A stretch of DNA of 64,000 nt, taken from positions 432,711 to 496,710 of the IMG/VR virus record IMGVR_UViG_3300015615_000629. One strand, written 5' to 3'. The position numbers and the translations under genes are program-made. The notes beneath the pieces were generated by a model, which saw only the letters and a program-made list of their open reading frames with translations, was not told the origin of the DNA and did not search any database. The stretch comes from a virus (Duplodnaviria; Heunggongvirae; Uroviricota; Caudoviricetes). The stretch's first letter is position 1; each line of letters opens with the position of its first letter. This document shows positions 5,201-52,364 of this stretch, one piece after another.

Positions 5201-6137
5201 TGAACTAACTCCATACCTTAATGAACGTTTTGATGAAGTTAAAGTAATTTCCCCAAGCCTATTCAAAGTCTATAAGCCATATCTCTATCCGGAAGTCTCT
5301 CTGGCGTATGGTATTACAAATAGTAAACTTGCCGAAATAATTGGCCCAACTAAGTCCACCTGCATTCATATCTTTACGGAAGGCCCAATTGGACTTAAAG
5401 TTAGAAACTACTGCGTTAGAAATAAATTAAAATTTACAACTTCTTATCTCACACATTTTGCTGAACAGTTAAAGAACATTACGTACCTGCCAGAATGGCT
5501 CACATACGCCTATCTGCGTTGGTTTCATAGAGATTCCAACAAGATAATTGTGGCAACCAATACCATTAGAGACCATCTTAAAAGCAAGGGTTTCAAAAAT
5601 AAAATAGAACCATGTTCTAAAGGCGTAAACACCACGGTTTTTCATCCATATAAACGAGATAACACCACAAAGCCTTTAATCGCCTATGTGGGCAGGGTTT
5701 CTAAGGAAAAGAATATAGAAGCCTTCTTGGATTGTAAATTTGATTGTGATAAAGTAGTAATTGGCGATGGCCCATATAGAAAGACACTACAAAGCAACTA
5801 TCCGAATATTAAGTTCGTTGGTTATTTAAAAGGAAAGGATTTGGCTAAGGCATATTCCGATGCAGACGCAACTGTATTTCCTAGTTTAACTGATACCTTT
5901 GGTTTAACCATTATCGAATCGCTAGCATGCGGCACGCCCGTGGCGGCTTTTCCGGTAACTGGCCCTAAAGATATCTTAACTCCGGAAACCGGTGGTTTGG
6001 ATTGGGATATTGACGTAGCAATTTCCAAGGCTCTTAATTCCAATTCTCAGGATTGTATAGAATTGGCGGCTAAGTATTCATGGAGTGCTTGTGCAAATTG
6101 CTTCGTTAGAAACCTTATCATAACTAAAAATGGATGA
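5136..6137 (+). CDS. GT4-family (GT-B) glycosyltransferase
   Basis: VGRVSKEKN...VIGDGP...SDADATVFPSLTDTFGLTIIESLACGTPVAAF is the retaining GT-B E-X7-E region. ATG at 5136. Confidence 0.75.
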   Translation: MKLILAMDLVKDQINGVSTTINELTPYLNERFDEVKVISPSLFKVYKPYLYPEVSLAYGITNSKLAEIIGPTKSTCIHIFTEGPIGLKVRNYCVRNKLKFTTSYLTHFAEQLKNITYLPEWLTYAYLRWFHRDSNKIIVATNTIRDHLKSKGFKNKIEPCSKGVNTTVFHPYKRDNTTKPLIAYVGRVSKEKNIEAFLDCKFDCDKVVIGDGPYRKTLQSNYPNIKFVGYLKGKDLAKAYSDADATVFPSLTDTFGLTIIESLACGTPVAAFPVTGPKDILTPETGGLDWDIDVAISKALNSNSQDCIELAAKYSWSACANCFVRNLIITKNG

Positions 6138-34929: not shown

Positions 34930-36345
34930 CTAAATTGTTTTTATATATCTCAAATGCCCTGCATCCCAAATTCTATCATAGCCATTTAACTTCATAATCT
35001 CATATTCCGGCAAGTCGGTAGAATACCCCTCCATTTTAACCAGTTTATGCTTTTGAAACTTCATCCTGTTAAAAAATTGTTTGTTCTTTATATTGTAATA
35101 CCCATATCCAGGTGAAGTTATCCCATCTAATTTAAATCCAATCTTTTCATACAAACCACCAATAGAATACCTTCGATCAGCATAAGACATAATGCTCTTT
35201 ACATCAAAACACTTCAACAATTTGCTAGCACCTCCAACAATATTCACTCCAAGTCTAGAACAATATCTTTTTAATTCATATCCATATTGTTTGTTCGGTA
35301 CAAGAGTCATGCAGGCGACTAATTCTCCATCGTGATACAAACCATATGCTAACTTAGAGTTGTCACTGCCTTGTAAGTGATTGATATTTAGAAAATTATT
35401 CTTTTCTTCAAACGACAACTCCTTTGACACCGTCTGGCGAGCATAAATTACAGCATTTGTTCTTAAATAGCCAGACAAACGGGATTTAACAATATCTTGT
35501 TTGTTTTCCCATTCATTCTCATATATCTGAATCAGGCGTATACCTAATTTGTCTGCAATTTCGGCTTTTTGAAAATGTAGTTTTTTACCAACTACAGACT
35601 CGGTGTGCCAATACATTCCATGATATTCTACCCCAAGTTTTAGTTCTGGAAGATAAATATCTATTTCTTTATAGTCTAACAAACGCTGATTAGTCTGTAT
35701 TTCACCGGAATGTTTAGTTTTAATGAAATCAGCAATCTCACGTTCACCTCTAGATTGGGACATCTCCCCAACACAACCGGGGCAGGCCAAATCAGACTTA
35801 AGATGTGTATAAGCAGCCTGTTCAAAGTCGCCATGTTTTTTACAAGTTATCTTAATTTTATCATGGGCTTTTGTGTAGTCGCCGTGATAAGTGAATTTGC
35901 CGCCATGCGTTTCAGTTGCTAGTTTCTCGAATGTTTGAACATTATAAGCCACGCCACCTTTACATTTCGGACAACCATTTTTAATGTTTATATGATTTGT
36001 TGCCGATTGGATAAATTCTCCATGATTAGGACAAATTATGGTTACTTTAGTGTAGATTCCATTAACGAGATCAACTTTAGAATAGTCATAAAAATCTCCA
36101 TGAACTTCTCTGGCACGTTTGATAAAAGTTTCTTTGGTGTGCTTGCCTACACCTCTACCAGCACAATGAGGGCAGCCACATTTTAAATGTCGATATGGAT
36201 ACTGTTCTACATCACCATGCCTTGGGCATTTGTAGAGAATCTTGGTAACTTTGTTGACATAAACGGTTTCTGAATAATCGTATTTGTCGCCATGTTTGGC
36301 GGTGGCTTTAACAAAAAACTTGGCTGGACTGGCTTTGCTAGACAT
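34930..36345 (-). CDS. Composite homing-endonuclease-like protein: three tandem Cys/His zinc-ribbon modules, a DUF559/Vsr-like PD-(D/E)xK nuclease and a GNAT-like tail
   Basis: Three repeats of HGDKYDYS..V......CP.HG.F.Q.......GCP.C. GVEYHGMYWHTE...IRLIQIYENEW is a DUF559-type motif. The C-terminal VGGASKLL...LYEKIGFKL resembles acyltransferase motifs A/B. Confidence 0.5.
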   Translation of the reverse strand: MSSKASPAKFFVKATAKHGDKYDYSETVYVNKVTKILYKCPRHGDVEQYPYRHLKCGCPHCAGRGVGKHTKETFIKRAREVHGDFYDYSKVDLVNGIYTKVTIICPNHGEFIQSATNHINIKNGCPKCKGGVAYNVQTFEKLATETHGGKFTYHGDYTKAHDKIKITCKKHGDFEQAAYTHLKSDLACPGCVGEMSQSRGEREIADFIKTKHSGEIQTNQRLLDYKEIDIYLPELKLGVEYHGMYWHTESVVGKKLHFQKAEIADKLGIRLIQIYENEWENKQDIVKSRLSGYLRTNAVIYARQTVSKELSFEEKNNFLNINHLQGSDNSKLAYGLYHDGELVACMTLVPNKQYGYELKRYCSRLGVNIVGGASKLLKCFDVKSIMSYADRRYSIGGLYEKIGFKLDGITSPGYGYYNIKNKQFFNRMKFQKHKLVKMEGYSTDLPEYEIMKLNGYDRIWDAGHLRYIKTI

Positions 36346-36441: not shown

Positions 36442-37884
36442 TTAGATTACAAAGTTAGCAATCGAGAGACGGGCATAGAACTTAGCACCTTCACGCAAGA
36501 GCTTTTTACCATATCGGGTAATTAAACCTTTACGAGGACAGAATCCATCTGGGTCTAATACAACCGGAGTTTGTGTAAGCGGCACATACGGGCAGAAGAA
36601 GTAACCCGAATCCATATAAGAATCACCTTTATAACCTAATAACATTTGGTTAGTTGGGAACAAAGGATCCTTATACAAACGCCAACGGGTATTAACCGTT
36701 CCCACGTACTGAACACCAAGCGAGCTGGTGAAGGTTTCAGACGGGGCTGGGGCGAAACCAGCGGTAGCGGTTTCAAACATCGAGGCAACTTCCGGAGAAG
36801 TTACGATCCAGTTAGCACCACCACGCAAGGTCTTACGGTGAACTTGGTTCGAAATTTCAACAGTCTTTACGAACAAAGATTCATACTTTTCTTTAATCGT
36901 GTCACCGAGGGCCGTGTTGAAATCCCAAGACGAAACAGTACCAGCACTGGTACGCAAGTCACTGAGAACTTCACGGTCGATTTCAAGATTAACTTCCTGA
37001 GCCAAAACAGCGGTCAATTCTTGTTCGGCATCAAGGTTATGCTGCGAACGAATATCTTGCTGGGCTTCGTAGCTCCAAACGGCTTTCAACTTACGGCTCT
37101 TAGCGACAATTTCTTCGCTTTCGATAACCATGTTGATTTCCGGGAGGTCTTGATTACACTCCATATTGTATTCATAGGATACAATTGCATAATTCGTGCT
37201 AGGAGTACCACCAGTCCAAGCAATGGTCAATTCACCCGTGGTGACGTTAACCGTGCTACCGGCCTGAAGACCCTTAACAGTCGGAGTTCCGATATCGACA
37301 AACGTAACTGTGCCACCTTCAGAAACGCTGAAAGTTTGAACAGCCGTAGCCGATTCATACAACGTTCCCGTAATGGTTCCGGCAAAAACCGGCGTGTGCT
37401 TGAACGGTTCGAAGACCGTGGTCGAGGCACCACCTGCATCGCTAGCCAAGGTTTCGTTCTGGACGAACGAGCTTGAGTAATAGATGTCAAGGTTTGCATC
37501 ACCAGAAGCGGTCTGCATCAAGCTTCTTGAATCATCACCTGGGAATCCGGAATTGCTTGCACCGAGGGTAGCACCCTTGTCGCTTCCGTAACGGAAACGG
37601 AGGTAGTACACCAAGCCGGTCGGGCCGAGCAACGGCTGAACCGACACAACTTTATTGGCAATCAACTGCGGATAAATACGACGAACAAGCGGAATACTAA
37701 TACGCTTGAAGTTTGCTACGTCAGAACTATCAGTAGCGGTTTCATTCATTAATCTCTGGTTTTCGAGAAGGACAGCTGCGCATGATCGGGTAAAGCGATC
37801 ATTGATGCCTTCCAGCAAACCAGTCGGTGCCCAGAGTGATTCACACTCTTTGGCTTCATTTAAGAATCTAGAATTTCCTTCCAT
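36442..37884 (-). CDS. Major capsid protein, T4 gp23-like
   Basis: LLENQ...ISIPLVRRIYPQLIANKVVSVQPLLGPTGLVYYLRFRY is a conserved gp23-family N-terminal region. The gp21/gp22 neighbours agree, as do the GC-richer codon usage and the terminator. Confidence 0.75.
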   Translation of the reverse strand: MEGNSRFLNEAKECESLWAPTGLLEGINDRFTRSCAAVLLENQRLMNETATDSSDVANFKRISIPLVRRIYPQLIANKVVSVQPLLGPTGLVYYLRFRYGSDKGATLGASNSGFPGDDSRSLMQTASGDANLDIYYSSSFVQNETLASDAGGASTTVFEPFKHTPVFAGTITGTLYESATAVQTFSVSEGGTVTFVDIGTPTVKGLQAGSTVNVTTGELTIAWTGGTPSTNYAIVSYEYNMECNQDLPEINMVIESEEIVAKSRKLKAVWSYEAQQDIRSQHNLDAEQELTAVLAQEVNLEIDREVLSDLRTSAGTVSSWDFNTALGDTIKEKYESLFVKTVEISNQVHRKTLRGGANWIVTSPEVASMFETATAGFAPAPSETFTSSLGVQYVGTVNTRWRLYKDPLFPTNQMLLGYKGDSYMDSGYFFCPYVPLTQTPVVLDPDGFCPRKGLITRYGKKLLREGAKFYARLSIANFVI

Positions 37885-44226: not shown

Positions 44227-46767
44227 TTATCCTAAATCTGAATAATCAATTTCTTCTTGATCTTGTTGCTTGCTGTAAGATTGTATTTCAAGATCGTATT
44301 TCTTAATTTCTTCTTTAGAAGGTTCTGCCAATTCTGGCGAGTTTCTTTGTTGCGGTTGGTTTTGATCTTGCGGCTGTCCTTGAGGTTGTCCAATTTGGTC
44401 TTGTGGAATTCCCTCTTCCGGAGGTTGTTCGGGAGTTGGTTGGTTTTGGTTTTGATCAGGAGCGAGCATGGGGTTAGGGCCACCTGCTTCTGAGCCGATT
44501 TCTGTTTCACCTTGACCAGGAGTACCGAAGCCGAGGATGCCTGGATTGCTAGCGATAATTTGCATTCTAAGTTGTTCATATTGTTGCAATTTATTCCTAG
44601 AAATCTTAAGTTCCGCTTCTTTTTCTGGGATTCTTAGGAAATCTATCATGAGATCGAAATCCGAGAAGATGCCAGCGGATTTAAGAGCGGTAGCGTTTTG
44701 AATTCTATTATTCGTAACCTCTTGCATGCTAAGTTCTTGCCACCAAGAGGGAATTGTCATCTTGATGTTGAGGTCGCGGTATAATTGTTTTGGATAACCA
44801 AGCAACGTTAAATGACGTTCTGCTATGGCGTACAATCCATCTTCAACAGAGAGTTGAATTCTACGGATCATTTTGGCGAACTTAACGTCTCTGACTGAGA
44901 GGGTTATTCTCGTTGCATTAGGGTCTGTATTGGAGAAATAATCGTTAGGAAAGTTGAGTGCGGTATAAAGTTTATTTCGGAAATATAACGCATCGTCGAT
45001 TTCGCTCATATTCTGAGCCCCTGGCAAAGTATCAATTCTTGTTTGAGAATTTGCCCGTGTTGGCACCCAAATATCTTCATCGGCAGACGGAGCGAACCAA
45101 CGTTCTTCGGTAGCACTTGCTCCCTGCCCTGTTCCCCTCATAGTAGGAACCTTCTTCTTGCGATACAGCGATTTAATTCTTTCTAAATATGCTTCCGCTT
45201 TACCAGGAGGAAGATTTCCTACATCGATATAGAAAACACGGCGTTCAGGAGCCCTAACCAAACGCATAACAAGCATAGAGTCTTCCATCAATCTCAACTG
45301 ATGGGCTGGCCCTCTAGCTGGCTCGATTAAACTCTGTCCGTAAGGATAGAAAGTATTCCTATCATCGCCGATTCTAAAGTGAATAATTTGATTGGGGGCA
45401 AAGCGAATAGCCGAACTTTGATTCAATTCTTCTTCAGTGGCTTTAGTAACATCTGCTTTAGACAATGCCTGATAATCTGGGCCTTCGGGACTTTGTTGAA
45501 ATTCAACCAGTTTACCTTTGGTGGTTTCAATACGATAAACGCTTTCAGTAGCCAAATCGGCCAACTTAAAGATTCCTGCTTTTGGTTCATTTGGATCAAT
45601 AACTATTTCTAGGAATTTATCGCCATTAATGCAGAGTTGCTTTGTCCATTTCCACAAATTTCTATCAATGTTGAGACGGTCGCGAGCGAAGAAGAAATCT
45701 TCCAATTCTTTTGTCACTTCATCATTTTTACATTTTATTGTAAATAAATGGTCGTTTTCACCGGATTGGCAATTGTGTAAAATAAGGGATTTGGTGGCGA
45801 AGCACTTTAGTTTATCTACAGAAAGGTCATAAACTCTTATTTTTGAATTTTTACGGACGCCAACAACTTTTCGATAATCTTTCTTTTTAGCCAACCAGAA
45901 CATTTCGTCGGTGTGGTAGCCTTTGGTTTTTAGATGGTATCTGATTCCTTCCCATCCTCTGTCGAGCATTTGTTCAATTTGTTTTGTGGTTAAGCCTGCT
46001 TTGAGGCTTTTCATTACTTTGGCGACAAGTTCATCCTCTGGCTTCTTGGTTTCGTCTCTCCATTGGTTGATAAATGTTCTTTCAGATATCCAACTGTCCT
46101 CGAATGTAAAGATTCTTGGAAAAACGTTCTTTCTCAAAGGATTTAGGAGTGTATTTGGTTCCAATCTATAGAAAGGCATTAGGTGATCGCCAACTTTAAG
46201 ATCGCCACCTGCTCTCCAGGTTTCGTCACGCATTAGAACTAAATGGTCTTCTGTAATTACTTCGAAGCTGCCATCGTCTAATGATATTTTTATGGTTTCT
46301 TCGTCTTTAACATATCTTGGATTTTTGGCCCAACCAATGGAATAATCATGTTTTTCGTGGTCATAACCATAGACTAGGAAAGGCTCATCTTTCTTATTTT
46401 CTGCAAGCCATTCGATAGATTTATGTCCAAAATAGACTGTTTGAACGGGTGTATTAGCAGCAAAACATGCTTCATCGGCAATAACCGTCATTACATTTTC
46501 AATTTCAGGAACATTTCTTAATCTTTCATATTCCTTCATTCTGGATTGACGATTGGTAATACTGCTTAGATCAATAAAGTCGCTGCTATCTCTAAGGCGG
46601 ATGGTGCCTTGGGTGCCGCCGAAGGTTCCATCTTGACGGATATCCCGTATAACGTCGGGTCTTAGAACTCCAGCACCTGTCAAATCTTGAGATTTTTGAC
46701 GTTTGGAGATGGGATCATCTTCAGCAGCGTATGTGAATAACTTAAATAAATCAGCCCAGAATGGCAT
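44227..46767 (-). CDS. Portal protein, T4 gp20-like, interrupted by a mini-intein
   Basis: MSEIDDALYFRNKLYTALNFP, SLIEPA and other gp20-like blocks, at about 846 aa against about 520-580 aa expected. An insert with intein blocks A, B, F and G is present. The QNQ/PE-rich C-terminal tail is low-complexity. Confidence 0.75.
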   Translation of the reverse strand: MPFWADLFKLFTYAAEDDPISKRQKSQDLTGAGVLRPDVIRDIRQDGTFGGTQGTIRLRDSSDFIDLSSITNRQSRMKEYERLRNVPEIENVMTVIADEACFAANTPVQTVYFGHKSIEWLAENKKDEPFLVYGYDHEKHDYSIGWAKNPRYVKDEETIKISLDDGSFEVITEDHLVLMRDETWRAGGDLKVGDHLMPFYRLEPNTLLNPLRKNVFPRIFTFEDSWISERTFINQWRDETKKPEDELVAKVMKSLKAGLTTKQIEQMLDRGWEGIRYHLKTKGYHTDEMFWLAKKKDYRKVVGVRKNSKIRVYDLSVDKLKCFATKSLILHNCQSGENDHLFTIKCKNDEVTKELEDFFFARDRLNIDRNLWKWTKQLCINGDKFLEIVIDPNEPKAGIFKLADLATESVYRIETTKGKLVEFQQSPEGPDYQALSKADVTKATEEELNQSSAIRFAPNQIIHFRIGDDRNTFYPYGQSLIEPARGPAHQLRLMEDSMLVMRLVRAPERRVFYIDVGNLPPGKAEAYLERIKSLYRKKKVPTMRGTGQGASATEERWFAPSADEDIWVPTRANSQTRIDTLPGAQNMSEIDDALYFRNKLYTALNFPNDYFSNTDPNATRITLSVRDVKFAKMIRRIQLSVEDGLYAIAERHLTLLGYPKQLYRDLNIKMTIPSWWQELSMQEVTNNRIQNATALKSAGIFSDFDLMIDFLRIPEKEAELKISRNKLQQYEQLRMQIIASNPGILGFGTPGQGETEIGSEAGGPNPMLAPDQNQNQPTPEQPPEEGIPQDQIGQPQGQPQDQNQPQQRNSPELAEPSKEEIKKYDLEIQSYSKQQDQEEIDYSDLG
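45772..46467 (-). other. Hint-domain mini-intein (232 aa) within the portal gene
   Basis: Intein residue 1 is Cys in CFAANTPVQTV (block A). Block B is TxxH, in SFEVITEDHLVLM. The C-terminus is KIRVYDLSVDKLKCFATKSLILHN followed by +1 Cys (HNC). No LAGLIDADG/HNH endonuclease domain fits in the middle. Confidence 0.6.
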
Positions 46768-47884: not shown

Positions 47885-49690
47885 TTACCAGTTAAATTCT
47901 CTTAGTAATTTATCATATTTTCTTCTAAATTGGAACTCCGGTGGAAGATTTTCATCATAAGAATCCAATTTTGGGTCAAATACAGGTTCTTCAACAACTT
48001 CAGGCAATCCTTCTCTAATTGCTGCGTGGATTTCGGCCATTAAATCTGGTGTAATTTGTGGTTTTAGAACTTCATGAGAAATATTTGCTCCAACCGGAAG
48101 ATTTCTATAATTCGTATTTATAGCATACATGGACATTGCCATAGCCATAATAGCATCGTCGTGCTTCCCTTTTTGAGCTTGGGCTTTCTTGGTTCTGGCA
48201 TTAAACAAGAAACTTCTTAGTTCTTCTGTAAATCTGTAACTTCTAATTAATAGCGATTTATTGAGAAGTCTAGACTGAAGTGCTTCTAGGAAAACAGGTC
48301 TGTTTGCCGATGAGGTTTTTACGCCAGGAGCGACTTTTTTACTTTTATTTTCATCATAGAAAATAGATTCATATTGAAGATCATGTTCTAAGTAACTTAA
48401 AACAGCGGCACCATAAGAACTTTGTTCAACAATAACTAGGGCTGTGTTGTAGTAAAGTCCCATGCTTCTTAGGTTTATGGCAAATTCTCTGGATGGAATT
48501 GTGTTGCTATAAAATTCTGCCACTTGTTCCATTTTGTTAATATCGATAATTTGATAGCAACTATTATCGGCAGGGCCACCAGTTCCTTCGGCACAGTCTG
48601 CTCCAATAACGTATTCATGTCCTTCTATTGGCTCTTTCCAAATCCACAAGGCTCCTATATCCCATTCATGTTTTTGGGCTGTGGCGTTACGCCATTCTTT
48701 CATAAGAATTCTAGCGGGTATAATTTCAGATACTTCCCTTGATAGTTGAACGATTAGGTCGGATGGAAAGAAGGTAGAACCGGAACCGATAAAACTTCTA
48801 AGAATTTCTTGTTTCCAGCCTTGTTCACCAAGCATTGCCTTGGTGTCGTTTACCCATTTTTTATCTGAATATTGCGGGTGTTCCCAGTAATCTAAATCAA
48901 TTACATGGAACGGACCTTGGCCTGATTCTGCTTTATGATAGGTTTCTTCATACCAGTTACCTACGCCATTAACCGTGGAAACAACGATACATTTACCACC
49001 GGTAGCGATAGTAGGATAAAGTGATTTCCAATGGGTTTCCATATCAGCGACGAATGCAGCTTCGTCGATGATTAGAAAGGTCATAGATTTACCACGAGCG
49101 GCTTCAGGAGTATAAAACTGAAGTCTGGAGCTGGTTTCTTTGAATAATTTTTCGTGTTTTGTGGGCGGTTCAACTTTCTTGTCATACATCCAAAGAGGGA
49201 GATGTTCTAACATTCTGTCAACAATTTCACCGGCTGACATGGCTTCACGGTCGGTTTTAGAAGCAACAAGCAGCTGTTGGTCTTTTTTGTACATACATCG
49301 CCACGCACCCCAAATAACGGTAACAGTGGTTAATCCACCTTGACGGAATTTGCTGATTATATTAAACCTATACTTTTGGTAGTCCTTGATTACCTTGCGT
49401 TGATATTTATAAGGGATAAAGGGAACCATACCGAAAGCTGGATGCATGATTTTTACGTAACGGTGACAGAAGTAGGGGAAACTTTTTACACATTTCTCTA
49501 TTTCTTGATATTGTCGTTCGGCTGAGAATTTTTCTGGATTTTCGTTCCAATCAATTTCTAGCTCGTATTTGTCAAATTCGTAAAATTTAGAATAGGCTTC
49601 CCATTCCGGAGTACGAACAATATCTTTAACCCTTGTGAATTTTCTGTAAAATTCTTCAAACGGTTCTGGTAAACTTTCTAAGTGGTCCAT
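47885..49690 (-). CDS. Terminase large subunit, T4 gp17-like
   Basis: Walker A is ISKFRQGGLTT, Walker B is FLIIDEAAF, and a C-terminal RNaseH-like nuclease region is present (DCAEG...D). Confidence 0.85.
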   Translation of the reverse strand: MDHLESLPEPFEEFYRKFTRVKDIVRTPEWEAYSKFYEFDKYELEIDWNENPEKFSAERQYQEIEKCVKSFPYFCHRYVKIMHPAFGMVPFIPYKYQRKVIKDYQKYRFNIISKFRQGGLTTVTVIWGAWRCMYKKDQQLLVASKTDREAMSAGEIVDRMLEHLPLWMYDKKVEPPTKHEKLFKETSSRLQFYTPEAARGKSMTFLIIDEAAFVADMETHWKSLYPTIATGGKCIVVSTVNGVGNWYEETYHKAESGQGPFHVIDLDYWEHPQYSDKKWVNDTKAMLGEQGWKQEILRSFIGSGSTFFPSDLIVQLSREVSEIIPARILMKEWRNATAQKHEWDIGALWIWKEPIEGHEYVIGADCAEGTGGPADNSCYQIIDINKMEQVAEFYSNTIPSREFAINLRSMGLYYNTALVIVEQSSYGAAVLSYLEHDLQYESIFYDENKSKKVAPGVKTSSANRPVFLEALQSRLLNKSLLIRSYRFTEELRSFLFNARTKKAQAQKGKHDDAIMAMAMSMYAINTNYRNLPVGANISHEVLKPQITPDLMAEIHAAIREGLPEVVEEPVFDPKLDSYDENLPPEFQFRRKYDKLLREFNW

Positions 49691-49703: not shown

Positions 49704-49856
49704 ATGCCGCAGAAACGCAAATTTTACGATCCAATAGTTATTGCTGGTGTTTTAACTGTAAGTTTTACGATTTTAAAAGAAGTTGGAAAAGCCATTGTTA
49801 GCTTTGTAACATATACATTGCTCAAAAAGTGGTGGGAGAAAAGAGATAAAAAATGA
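49704..49856 (+). CDS. 50-aa membrane peptide
   Basis: ATG...TGA overlapping the start of the M28 peptidase gene (ATGA). Central TM helix IVIAGVLTVSFTIL. Confidence 0.3.
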   Translation: MPQKRKFYDPIVIAGVLTVSFTILKEVGKAIVSFVTYTLLKKWWEKRDKK

Positions 49857-51028
49857 ATGATAAAAGACTTATTTTAGTTGTTATCTGTTTGTCGTTAGTT
49901 GGTGGATTTATTGTTTACAATAAATTTTATGAAAAACCACATTTTTCAAATTTACCTGAAGATGCCCCTTCAACGCCTTTCTCTCTACCAGACAAAGAAG
50001 AAGATCCGCTAGAATCCATTAAAGAGTCTGAACTTACAGAGATGCTTAATTATTTGGCTTCTGATGAATTAGAAGGGCGAATGAGCGGCAAAAAGGGGAA
50101 TGTGGTAGCGGCTGAGTTTATAAAGAAGAAATTCGAAGAATTTGGTTTGCCAACGGAATATGACAAATTTAGGATTAGTAGAGAAAATCCAGGCCCTAAA
50201 AATGAGACTGGGGATGACTTTACTCAAAACATTTACGCTTGGATAGAAGGTAACGACCCGAATCTAAAAGATGAAGTTGTAATCATAGGGGCTCATATGG
50301 ATCATATTGGGTATGGCCCTTCTATGAGTAGAGCCCCAAATCGTCGAGAAGTACATAATGGTGCTGACGATAATGGGAGCGGGACGGTTGCACTAATTGA
50401 AATTGCAGAAGCATTTTCATGTGTTAAAGATAAGGTTAAGAGAACTGTAGTGTTTCAGGCATATTCTGCGGAAGAGATGGGTTTGATTGGTTCTCGTCAT
50501 TATTGCGATAATCCTAAGTTTCCGAGAGATAAGCCTGATATTAAGAAGACAGTCATGATGTGCAACCTCGATATGGTTGGATATTTGAATAAAGGTGTTT
50601 ATTCTCTAGCTTGGGGTGCTGGGGATAGTTCTTTGGACATTAGCCGAATAATTGAAGAGTTAAATGAGAAATACACTTTTGCTAGAAAAGTGACTAGTAG
50701 GGGAAGTGGCGGTAGTGATCATGCTAGTTTTTACAACAAAAGGGTTCCGGTGGCTTTCCTTCATACTGGATTACACCCTTACTACCACACACCAGATGAT
50801 GATGTAGATAAGATTAATTTTCAGGGCATGGAACAAATAGCCAAATATGCTTTTGAATTGGCGTGGAAAGTGTGCCAAGGTGAAACGCCGCCAAAATTCA
50901 ATCTTGCTACTTTTAAGGAAATGGAATATACCCATGACCACGGACATCCTGATGTAGAATCTGAAATTCATAGCTATCATAAGCATGAACATGAACACGG
51001 GCACAATCATTCACACGAGGAAAAGTAA
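49853..51028 (+). CDS. M28-family zinc aminopeptidase, membrane-anchored, with a His-rich C-terminal tail
   Basis: All five metal-ligand blocks are present: GAHMDHIG, GADDNGSG, EEMGLIGS, CNLDMVGY and GGSDHASF. N-terminal TM helix. The tail is HDHGHPDVESEIHSYHKHEHEHGHNHSHEEK. Confidence 0.7.
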   Translation: MNDKRLILVVICLSLVGGFIVYNKFYEKPHFSNLPEDAPSTPFSLPDKEEDPLESIKESELTEMLNYLASDELEGRMSGKKGNVVAAEFIKKKFEEFGLPTEYDKFRISRENPGPKNETGDDFTQNIYAWIEGNDPNLKDEVVIIGAHMDHIGYGPSMSRAPNRREVHNGADDNGSGTVALIEIAEAFSCVKDKVKRTVVFQAYSAEEMGLIGSRHYCDNPKFPRDKPDIKKTVMMCNLDMVGYLNKGVYSLAWGAGDSSLDISRIIEELNEKYTFARKVTSRGSGGSDHASFYNKRVPVAFLHTGLHPYYHTPDDDVDKINFQGMEQIAKYAFELAWKVCQGETPPKFNLATFKEMEYTHDHGHPDVESEIHSYHKHEHEHGHNHSHEEK

Positions 51029-51471
51029 TGGATTTAAACAAACTAGTTGAGAAATTGAACGAAGATTTGAACCGTGAATACATGCATATGCATTTTTATT
51101 TGCATGCTGCATCGACTATTTCCGGTACGGATCGGGAAGAATACCGAGAATTTCTATTAGATGCAGCTAAAAGCGAGCTGAATCATATCCATGAATTTAC
51201 CGATATGATTATCGGTCTTGGATATATTCCAACTCCCGAAACCCTGAGTTACCCCACCAACTTAACTAGGGTTAGGGAAATTCTTGAGTATGCCTTACAA
51301 ATAGAAGACGAGGTAGTTGAAAGATATGTCCAACGGATGGATGATGCCGAAGAATTAGAGAAAGAGGGTGGATTGAATAAAGTTCATGGAAGGTTTATTC
51401 ATATTTTTCTAGAAAACCAAATTATGGATTCACGTACCGACGCAGACAATATTCGAAGAATGTTGAGGTGA
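51028..51471 (+). CDS. Ferritin-like (Dps/bacterioferritin-like four-helix-bundle) protein
   Basis: LNEDLNREYMHMHFYLHAA and AKSELNHIHEFTDMI (E..H pairs) fit a ferritin-like di-metal site. Confidence 0.45.
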   Translation: MDLNKLVEKLNEDLNREYMHMHFYLHAASTISGTDREEYREFLLDAAKSELNHIHEFTDMIIGLGYIPTPETLSYPTNLTRVREILEYALQIEDEVVERYVQRMDDAEELEKEGGLNKVHGRFIHIFLENQIMDSRTDADNIRRMLR

Positions 51472-51474
51472 GCC

Positions 51475-52056
51475 ATTCCCACAGAAAATGAATTTAAATA
51501 TGTTCTAGACATAAAAACCGAACATATTTTTGCCAATTTAGTAGGAACACATCATTATCTTATCAAACAAGGTTATCTTGCTTCTAAAAAAGGCTTAACC
51601 TTACGCATTAGGCAATCTTGTTGTATTAGTGGCAAACATACAAAACAGATTTTATGTTTTAAGCAGAAAACCAATGGAAGGGTTATAGAAATAGAAAAAA
51701 ATATAGATAAAAGGGATTTTAGAGATTTATGGAAAATCTGTAAAAGTAAAGTTTATAAAGTAAGGCACGAGTTAGTATTTAAGGCGGATGGCATTTGGGA
51801 AGTTGATTTTTTCAAGAAAGTGGGGAATAAAAAGGCAATATTAGAAGGGGAAACGTACTTTGCAATGGCAGAACACGAAGCCCCAGAAGGTAAAACAAAG
51901 CCAGATTTTGTACCTGAATTAATTTCTCAAAATTCAATTTATATTCCTTCTCAGGATGACGATAGATTTAGTAGTAAAAAATTATCGAATATTTATTATG
52001 CAACTGATCTTTACAAAGAATTAGAAAAAGATATATTAGCGGTAACAGAAAGGTAA
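51475..52056 (+). CDS. CYTH-like (triphosphate tunnel metalloenzyme) domain protein with no ATG/GTG/TTG start
   Basis: The ORF is open from the codon after the ferritin-like gene's TGA, and in the same frame. ENEFKYVL is the ExExK beta-strand 1 of CYTH, followed by LRIR, GRVIEIEKNI and WEVDFFKKVGNKKAILEGE. The only candidate starts are ATT 51475 (GAGGTG SD 4 nt upstream) or TGA readthrough. The track's GTG 51820 would cut the domain in half. Confidence 0.4.
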   Translation: MPTENEFKYVLDIKTEHIFANLVGTHHYLIKQGYLASKKGLTLRIRQSCCISGKHTKQILCFKQKTNGRVIEIEKNIDKRDFRDLWKICKSKVYKVRHELVFKADGIWEVDFFKKVGNKKAILEGETYFAMAEHEAPEGKTKPDFVPELISQNSIYIPSQDDDRFSSKKLSNIYYATDLYKELEKDILAVTER

Positions 52057-52061
52057 TTAAA

Positions 52062-52364
52062 ATGACTTATTCAATTACAAAAAACCTACCAGTTGCTCGT
52101 TTCTATTACAAGGGAAACCATTCTCATCCGGTTAAGAGAACGATTTTAATCATTGAGTCTAATGAGAAATGGCTAAGGGGCTATGAATTACGAGAAGGAA
52201 GTGAAACTCGCTCATTTTCGGCCGCCCCTATTAAGACATATTCCCGTTGCAAAGTTGCCAGGATGGTAAATTGTCGCTTCAAGAAAGAAGTTAAAAAGAA
52301 GGAACTTAATAAGAGCACCCTTAAAAGGACAACTTTAATTGATTTAATTACAAATGGAATCTAA
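52062..52364 (+). CDS. Hypothetical basic protein
   Basis: AAAGG SD, ATG. Confidence 0.4.
   Translation: MTYSITKNLPVARFYYKGNHSHPVKRTILIIESNEKWLRGYELREGSETRSFSAAPIKTYSRCKVARMVNCRFKKEVKKKELNKSTLKRTTLIDLITNGI

Follow-up and report, generated by a model that had tools for sequence, protein, structure and literature searches.

The 64,000-nucleotide stretch analysed here (hereafter the window), positions 432,711 to 496,710 of the Caudoviricetes record IMGVR_UViG_3300015615_000629, carries directly behind a ferritin-like gene a reading frame for a protein of the CYTH or triphosphate tunnel metalloenzyme (TTM) type. Combining homologue alignments, profile and structure comparisons and scans of related loci, we find that 51475-52056 is very probably an independent gene for a protein of about 22 kDa, whose translation would start at AUU (ATT 51475). 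An earlier note on this DNA had observed that the frame of the ferritin-like gene stays open past its TGA, and had offered three explanations: recoding of the TGA into a ferritin–CYTH fusion, initiation at ATT 51475, and a sequencing error or pseudogene. Of these, the ATT start is well supported and the recoding is not supported. Our corrected gene model for the window has its start at 51475, not at GTG 51820, and involves no fusion. The features on which the argument turns are as follows.

51028-51471, plus strand: ferritin-like gene, 147 amino acids (aa), ending in TGA 51469-71; Pfam Ferritin, E=3.9e-15
51465-51471, plus strand: Shine-Dalgarno (SD) sequence GAGGTGA, within the last ferritin codons and taking in the TGA stop
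51475-51477, plus strand: ATT, putative CYTH start codon, 3 nucleotides (nt; GCC) past the TGA and aligned with the homologues' Met
51475-52056, plus strand: stand-alone CYTH/TTM gene, 193 codons plus TAA 52054-56; assigned from homologues, profile, AF2 model and Foldseek
51484-51498, plus strand: family-conserved ExExK motif (E-N-E-F-K), strand beta1, residues 5-9 of the 194-aa translation
51604-51612, plus strand: RxR phosphate-binding motif (R-I-R, in T-L-R-I-R), R45 and R47 invariant
51871-51879, plus strand: ExE metal-binding motif (E-H-E), strand beta8, E134 and E136 invariant
51820-52056, plus strand: mechanically called open reading frame (ORF) with a GTG start, 78 aa, a truncated mis-call of the CYTH gene

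An ATT codon in the place of the family's initiator methionine

Beyond TGA 51469-71 the frame of the ferritin-like ORF runs through 194 sense codons (195 with the stop) to TAA 52054-56, and its first canonical start, GTG 51820, is codon 117. The 116 codons before it contain no ATG, GTG or TTG, just as the earlier note had described. From the codon usage of 14 long genes in the window, where such codons make up 4.4%, a run of this kind has a probability of about 0.005; homologues have 0-10 of these codons in the same span (mean 4.8), and only this one ORF in the window shows a start-free gap of such length. ATT-initiated members of the family show no avoidance of internal ATG, GTG or TTG codons (p=0.54), so the 116-codon gap of the window gene is no family trait.

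What places the start at ATT is the alignment with the family. The 24 homologues found in the protein database (down to E=2e-46) are free-standing proteins of about 180 aa, nearly all of which begin MPTENExKYVL, and their initiator Met column coincides exactly with ATT 51475-77. The conserved block ENEFKYVL begins at the fifth codon past the stop (TGA-A-I-P-T-E) and not at the third, as had been stated. Only the nucleotides GCC lie between the TGA and the ATT; GAGGTG at 51465-70 stands 4 nt (AGCC) upstream of the ATT, as the earlier note had it, and its GAGG core ends 6 nt 5' of the codon. On our own reading, the longer GAGGTGA would be complementary to the 16S 3' end UCACCUC, and in the predicted mRNA fold both the SD and the AUU are unpaired.

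The homologues also bear on the stop codon. It had been proposed that an ordinary ATG in homologues, together with a sense codon in place of the TGA, would betray an assembly error. Most homologues do have ATG at this position, but the TGA is not sense in them: the ferritin genes of relatives end at the same point, and TGA 51469-71 is therefore a true stop.

A CYTH/TTM protein and its likely function

The CYTH assignment needed homologues, a family profile and a structure model, because the 194-aa translation, scanned directly against Pfam, matched nothing at E<=1. Seven of the 24 homologues match Pfam CYTH (PF01928; best E=5.8e-5), and the family profile finds the Nitrosomonas europaea triphosphatase NE1496 (PDB 3typ, 2fbl) at E=2e-8, with ExExK, QGY, KxR, ExDxF and ExE in register and the window's ENEFK opposite TEIERK. 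The AF2 model computed from the family alignment (pLDDT 93.3, pTM 0.89) is a beta-barrel with nine predicted beta-strands, eight of them long (7-13 residues). A Foldseek comparison with the PDB ranks 2fbl, 3typ, 2gfg and 2een first, all of them CYTH/TTM structures (E 3e-8 to 6e-4), followed by Vtc4, the mimivirus RNA triphosphatase and human thiamine triphosphatase (ThTPase; E 2e-3 to 3e-2 for these three), among which Mediator Med18/20 chains are interspersed. In the family alignment R45, R47, K64, E73, E75, K96, R98, D112, E134 and E136 are invariant or nearly so, and the blocks that the earlier note had taken as CYTH-like (LRIR, GRVIEIEKNI and EVDFF...GNKKAILEGE) are all found in the translation. 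As judged from profile and model, the window protein is a genuine CYTH/TTM protein, and the similarity first noticed by eye holds even though Pfam does not detect it directly.

Sequence rules for the CYTH subgroups are available from Vogt et al. 2021 (PMC8233210): class IV cyclases carry HFxxxxExExK, a small residue for the first Arg of RxR and Ala for the second Glu of ExE; the ThTPase subgroup carries W/YxRxR; and two-metal TTM hydrolases keep the second Glu of ExE. A class IV adenylyl cyclase (CyaB-like) was considered for the window protein and rejected, as only M/I-P-T precedes ExExK, with no HFxxxxExExK, and both R-I-R and E-H-E are intact. Thiamine triphosphatase was rejected as well, since T, not W/Y, stands two positions ahead of the first Arg in T-L-R-I-R (T/S/A across the family). 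The second Glu kept in E-H-E marks a two-metal hydrolase, and our best guess at the function is a classical TTM triphosphatase, an activity predicted from these motifs.

NE1496 (NeuTTM; PF01928) is both the best profile match and the best fold match (Foldseek E=3e-8), and, like the window protein, it is a single domain with neither the HF nor the W/YxRxR motif. It differs in that its identity to the phage family is only about 22-23%, that about 50 conserved aa (P..P...D.RFSSKKL...YA..LY) are added at the C-terminus in the phage family, and that in the window protein beta7 and beta8 are separated by about 10 inserted residues (VGNKKAILEGE).

The same conserved residues dispose of the start that a gene caller would choose. 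If translation began at GTG 51820, the sole canonical start in the frame, the product would be a 78-aa C-terminal fragment and the 116 codons upstream would be non-coding remnants. The motifs ExExK, RxR, K and ExE/KxR lie in those codons, which are conserved like the rest of the gene; the fragment, which drops half of the domain as had been pointed out before, would lose beta1-beta7 (all but one of the 8 barrel strands) and the majority of the invariant residues (Q33 to F114). No purine-rich SD precedes 51820 (the sequence 5' of it is TTTTTTCAAGAAA), and equivalent truncated calls in relatives are demonstrably artefacts of the callers. We consider this start practically out of the question.

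The ferritin stop codon and the in-frame arrangement

A single TGA separates the two in-frame ORFs, no bacterial stop codon is leakier than UGA, and many related phage contigs have ferritin and CYTH genes side by side, which makes a functional link plausible. Programmed read-through or recoding of the UGA would then yield a ferritin–CYTH fusion of about 342 aa. The relatives speak strongly against it. From ferritin to CYTH all three frame offsets (0, 1 and 2) occur among them, at distances of -1 to 1230 nt; many CYTH loci have no ferritin gene; and several loci that start with ATT have an upstream stop within a few nt in another frame (+1 in L002, L016 and L071, +2 in L254). The CYTH family comprises 318 clusters at 50% identity (E<=1e-30), and among its 150 best representatives, all 121-221 aa long, none is fused. 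Ferritin homologues cover residues 1-147 in alignment and terminate at the same residue, and within the window TGA ends 13 of 63 long ORFs. No tRNA gene, and hence no suppressor tRNA, was found in the window, and RNA structure around the ferritin–CYTH junction or 3' of the stop is not significant (z=-1.5).

Given the variable frames and gaps, the lack of fusions and the ordinary use of TGA as a stop, the in-frame arrangement is a one-in-three coincidence, and we regard a programmed fusion, the first of the three explanations offered earlier, as highly improbable; a minor incidental read-through product may exist but is not needed. Two further recoding routes were rejected. An alternative code with TGA as a sense codon conflicts with the 13 long ORFs that end in TGA, with the lack of tRNA genes in the window and with the ferritin homologues, which stop there. 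A +1 frameshift at CAT-TAA-A in L002 was set aside by reasoning: it would leave the His-tRNA without a codon on which to re-pair, and such a mechanism could not serve the other loci.

Recurrence of ATT at the homologous start codon

We scanned metagenomes and IMG/VR with degenerate DNA patterns, using xxx-CCN-ACN-GAR-MAY-GAR-NNN-AAR for the start of the gene, and ran a second IMG/VR scan seeded on an internal motif and hence blind to the start codon. In addition, DNA was retrieved for those database homologues that looked N-terminally truncated (three) or extended (one). At least 13 other distinct family members have ATT at the homologous start codon, each behind an SD: L001, L002/3, L016, L025/26, L048, L053/64/73, L058, L063, L071, L081, L251, L254 and L259. 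Together with the Met alignment, this recurrence backs initiation at ATT 51475 behind GAGGTG, the second explanation of the earlier note.

Individual loci illustrate the pattern. P0011 (L002/L003) reads AAAGAGGAGCATTAAA-ATT-CCT-ACA-GAA, with GAGGAG 7 nt before the ATT and the ferritin TAA 1 nt 5' of it in another frame; P0012 (L001) reads GGGAGGGTTTGT-ATT-CCT-ACT-GAA, with GGGAGGG 5 nt before the ATT and the upstream gene on the opposite strand; P0013 (L251) reads AAGGAGAGCAACT-ATT; and in P0124 (L254) a ferritin TAG is followed by 2 nt and then ATT. P0017 starts with TTG. In P0011, P0013 and P0124 the gene callers erred in the same way as with the ORF at GTG 51820. These mis-calls arise because the true start is ATT, and a widespread CYTH family of phages and jumbo phages is thereby mis-annotated by standard gene callers, as truncated or N-extended, in roughly 5-15% of lineages.

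Among family members found by the start-pattern scans of IMG/VR, ATT occurs 11 times, TTG 3 times, GTG, ATA and ATC not at all, and ATG at least 31 times; with these counts, ATT is the preferred non-ATG start of the family. The 44 loci of the internal-motif scan include ATT in L016 and L025/L026, one GTG and one CTG, the others having ATG. Bacterial genomes, scanned for copies starting with either ATG or ATT, yielded 21 ATG copies, mostly chromosomal, from Brevundimonas and other Caulobacteraceae, and a single ATT copy, L259, which has a phage-type ferritin gene upstream and encodes a CYTH protein sharing 93% identity with the product of L165, a locus with an ordinary ATG. In all, ATT stands at the start codon in about 6-12% of family lineages. 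It lies in at least six separate places of a neighbour-joining tree, each time beside ATG sisters, and one clade (L048, L053, L058 and L081, each only about 50-55% identical to the reference L019) is mostly ATT; L246, a relative within this ATT-rich clade that is 75% identical to L058, starts with TTG. Identical ATT alleles come from independent samples in L002/L003, L025/L026 and L053/L064/L073, which excludes assembly error for those alleles.

The gene just 5' of the ATT is not always a ferritin gene. In L076 (= L025/L026) and L048 it is a ferredoxin-like ORF (CPVEAIF motif) in the one and a small hydrophobic ORF in the other, so the ATT start is not tied to one neighbour. In L253 (P0152, at about 170-195) an ATT occupies the conserved position (IPIENERKY), but an ATG two codons upstream abuts the SD (AAGGAGA-ATG-AAA-ATT), and the start of this gene is ambiguous. 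The chromosomal homologues of the phage CYTH family (genome contigs L258-L292), from many Brevundimonas and other Caulobacteraceae genomes, are 35-45% identical to it, all ATG, and start MPTENERKYV. A conserved GCTAGAACCGCGCC lies directly 5' of the Caulobacteraceae copies. In L265 the homologue (5495-6004) sits between a TetR regulator and a DUF72 gene, a context that offers no functional clue.

An SD-like purine motif lies about 4-10 nt 5' of the ATT in all relatives with this start, and the predicted SD pairing is stronger in ATT than in ATG members (median -7.6 versus -5.5 kcal/mol; one-sided p=0.013, kinship ignored). An upstream stop 1-4 nt 5' of the start, that is, tight coupling, is found in 6 of 12 ATT members and 12 of 33 ATG members. 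A dependence of ATT on tight coupling to an upstream stop was considered and rejected, as these proportions are not distinctive. In L001 the upstream gene is divergent, so de novo AUU initiation must suffice there.

Several observations weigh against our reading of these starts. In L001, L016, L025 and L259 an in-frame canonical start lies 14-25 codons upstream of the ATT and might be the one used there. The fraction of ATT lineages is rough, corresponding to 3 among 24 protein clusters and, in IMG/VR, 2 among about 33 distinct loci, where the ATG count is a lower bound (at least 31). The comparison of SD strength between ATT and ATG members takes no account of phylogeny, and the ATT members lie in AT-richer contigs (mean GC 38%, as against 45% for ATG contigs). 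Mutational drift, made tolerable by a strong SD or by translational coupling and with no selection for a weak start, may contribute. As to the window itself, the search for a close relative of its phage went no higher than about 50% aa identity, which leaves none against which to check the single base, G or T, at 51477. When near-identical copies of the window genome were sought, neither the 78-aa fragment nor the ferritin protein was on record as an exact match; a metagenome scan with the CYTH protein gave nothing above 44% identity, every relative having ATG, and a phage collection yielded only LR756511.1 (ATG, 595 kb) and Sinorhizobium phage Phosso (ATG, 469 kb).

One G-to-T change parts ATT from the usual ATG, and with no close relative of the window genome to check that base, a sequencing or assembly error, or a recent pseudogene, would explain the missing start. 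Against this, the ORF is intact across its 193 codons and retains every invariant family residue and all catalytic motifs, the model has a pLDDT of 93, and ATT at exactly this codon recurs in relatives from independent assemblies, several alleles being identical across independent samples. That an error at this one base should happen to produce a naturally recurrent variant is far less likely than a natural ATT allele, and we hold error or decay, the third explanation of the earlier note, to be very unlikely.

Selection, drift or homing endonucleases

ATT may recur either by selection for a weak start sensitive to initiation factor 3 (IF3) or by drift tolerated in AT-rich genomes. We tentatively put forward, as one rather unlikely account, that ATT is a selected feature of this TTM family of jumbo phages: weak starts (ATT, occasionally TTG) would have arisen or been kept repeatedly behind strong SDs, holding a potentially harmful triphosphatase at a low level and making it IF3-sensitive, so that during infection it would answer to the state of the host's initiation machinery. 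More speculatively, the conserved 5' end of the gene, ATGCCNACNGARAAYGAR, would be a homing-endonuclease target, and ATT alleles would have been favoured, or have spread, with HNH genes inserting there (L053, L081 and the L259 scar). Points in favour of selection are that there are no ATA or ATC starts, that ATT has been kept across deep divergence, that TTG is the sole other alternative in the clade, and that SDs are stronger.

The other account, which we consider possible though doubtful, accepts ATT as real but not selected. G-to-T drift, neutral or slightly deleterious, would have been tolerated in AT-rich phage genomes through strong SDs and coupling to the upstream gene, or ATT would have been spread by gene conversion linked to homing endonucleases at the junction. 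The lower GC of the ATT contigs and the close upstream stop in half of the 12 ATT members fit this account, as do the HNH endonuclease gene that L053 and L081 carry between ferritin and CYTH, overlapping the ATT, and the short upstream ORF (uORF) of L259 (MPTENEK... with an HNH-like tail) just 5' of the ATT. However, G-to-A transitions should by our reasoning be at least as frequent, yet ATA and ATC starts were not found; ATT has been kept in the clade of L048, L053, L058 and L081 despite the distance of each from L019; L246, the clade's other non-ATG member, uses TTG, which is also weaker than ATG; and close coupling is about as common in ATG members. Against conversion, the synonymous sites beside the ATT differ among ATT alleles and give no sign of a recent conversion tract common to them.

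The elements at this junction deserve description in their own right. L053 (9268-9939) has between ferritin and CYTH a free-standing HNH endonuclease gene of 223 aa with a CCHQCN motif, as does L081 in the homologous place, and the 3' end of this gene overlaps the CYTH ATT by about 20 nt; the conserved 5' end of the CYTH gene may be a homing target. L259, a 933-kb contig binned as Acidobacteriaceae, has at about 1665-1760, between the ferritin gene and the ATT-initiated CYTH gene, a 22-codon uORF (MPTENEKHKNNRNKGDSNSNRA, then a stop) that starts like an ATG-type CYTH gene, ends like the HNH tail of L053 and L081, and is in a frame different from that of the real CYTH gene. It looks like a recombination or deletion scar.

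Whatever drives it, start codons that vary naturally and repeatedly between ATG, ATT and TTG at one homologous position, together with SD compensation that can be measured, offer a convenient comparative data set on how AUU initiation is tolerated or exploited by bacteria and phages beyond infC and pcnB.

The gene block beside the terminase

The CYTH frame belongs to a tightly packed plus-strand series of M28 peptidase, ferritin-like and CYTH genes that is divergent from the terminase gene. The M28 peptidase gene is the first of this same-strand block, and its stop overlaps the ferritin ATG. Other features of the window are listed below.

49853-51028, plus strand: M28-family peptidase gene; Pfam Peptidase_M28, E=1.4e-41
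52062-52364, plus strand: gene for a 100-aa basic protein, directly 3' of the CYTH gene
47885-49690, minus strand: large terminase
44227-46767, minus strand: portal
36442-37884, minus strand: major head protein
34930-36345, minus strand: large HNH/homing endonuclease gene adjoining the major head protein gene; phrog_559, E=3.7e-108

The arrangement of M28 peptidase, ferritin-like, CYTH and 100-aa-protein genes by the terminase recurs in synteny across many contigs of large phages (120-400 kb). The M28 peptidase has a hydrophobic N-terminal segment and a markedly His-rich C-terminal tail (HDHGHPDVESEIHSYHKHEHEHGHNHSHEEK). The 100-aa protein, encoded at the same position in most related loci, shows sub-threshold Pfam likeness to nucleic-acid-binding domains, WRKY (E=0.002) and RYYR-CCHC (E=0.087). 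A block of M28 peptidase, ferritin-like protein and TTM triphosphatase is conserved by the terminase gene of large phages; metal handling would be no more than a guess at its function.

A model of initiation and its known counterparts

In the mechanism that we propose, the M28 peptidase, ferritin-like and CYTH genes would be co-transcribed, as there is no terminator between the genes (none was found between ferritin and CYTH, where promoter and terminator matches are at chance level). Ribosomes would end ferritin translation at UGA 51469-71, and the SD GAGGUGA in the ferritin 3' end would set a 30S subunit or the terminating ribosome on the AUU 3 nt downstream. The initiator tRNA inserts Met at AUU, so the product would be MPTENEFK...; begun with initiator fMet-tRNA (M-P-T-E-N-E-F-K...), it would share its N-terminus with the ATG-initiated homologues, and the Met would probably be removed before Pro. 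Initiation at AUU is expected to be several-fold below that at AUG and IF3-sensitive.

AUU-initiated genes of the infC and pcnB type and CYTH/TTM enzymes are already known. That ATG and ATT alternate recurrently at the start codon within a phage gene family, and that mis-annotation results, appears not to have been described, and we count it as a modest new observation. In the literature searched, on ATT/AUU starts in phages and on phage CYTH proteins, we found nothing specific to this CYTH family, and neither a phage counterpart of the pcnB case nor a recurrent ATG/ATT start polymorphism was described.

Three known systems help to place the gene. The phage Qbeta A1 protein is made by UGA read-through, and the window resembles that case in having an in-frame ORF past a single UGA in a phage operon. 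In Qbeta-type read-through, however, the extension lacks a separate start, and its position in frame is both conserved and indispensable, whereas the window ORF has its own SD and a codon homologous to the family's start, and its in-frame arrangement is not conserved. The E. coli pcnB gene, for poly(A) polymerase I, also starts with AUU, which is thought to keep a potentially harmful enzyme low. It is like the window gene in carrying AUU on an enzyme outside the translation factors, and unlike it in being a cellular gene of an unrelated family.

The closest parallel in layout is E. coli infC, which encodes IF3. At the thrS-infC junction the sequence is UAA GGU AUU (Osterman et al., PMC3592434), and the window, with UGA GCC AUU, shares the AUU start, the SD within the end of the upstream gene and the succession of stop, 3-nt gap and AUU. 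In the reporter used in that study, AUU, like UUG, gave expression 6-8 times lower than AUG or GUG, and with the thrS-infC layout the second cistron's translation came in about equal parts from re-initiation and de novo initiation (PMC3592434). Gene finders restricted to ATG, GTG and TTG miss the infC start just as they miss that of the window CYTH gene. The two differ in that the AUU of infC is conserved and belongs to a demonstrated IF3 autoregulatory loop of a translation factor, whereas the window gene is a phage gene for a metabolic enzyme, in whose family a minority of members carry ATT and most carry ATG.

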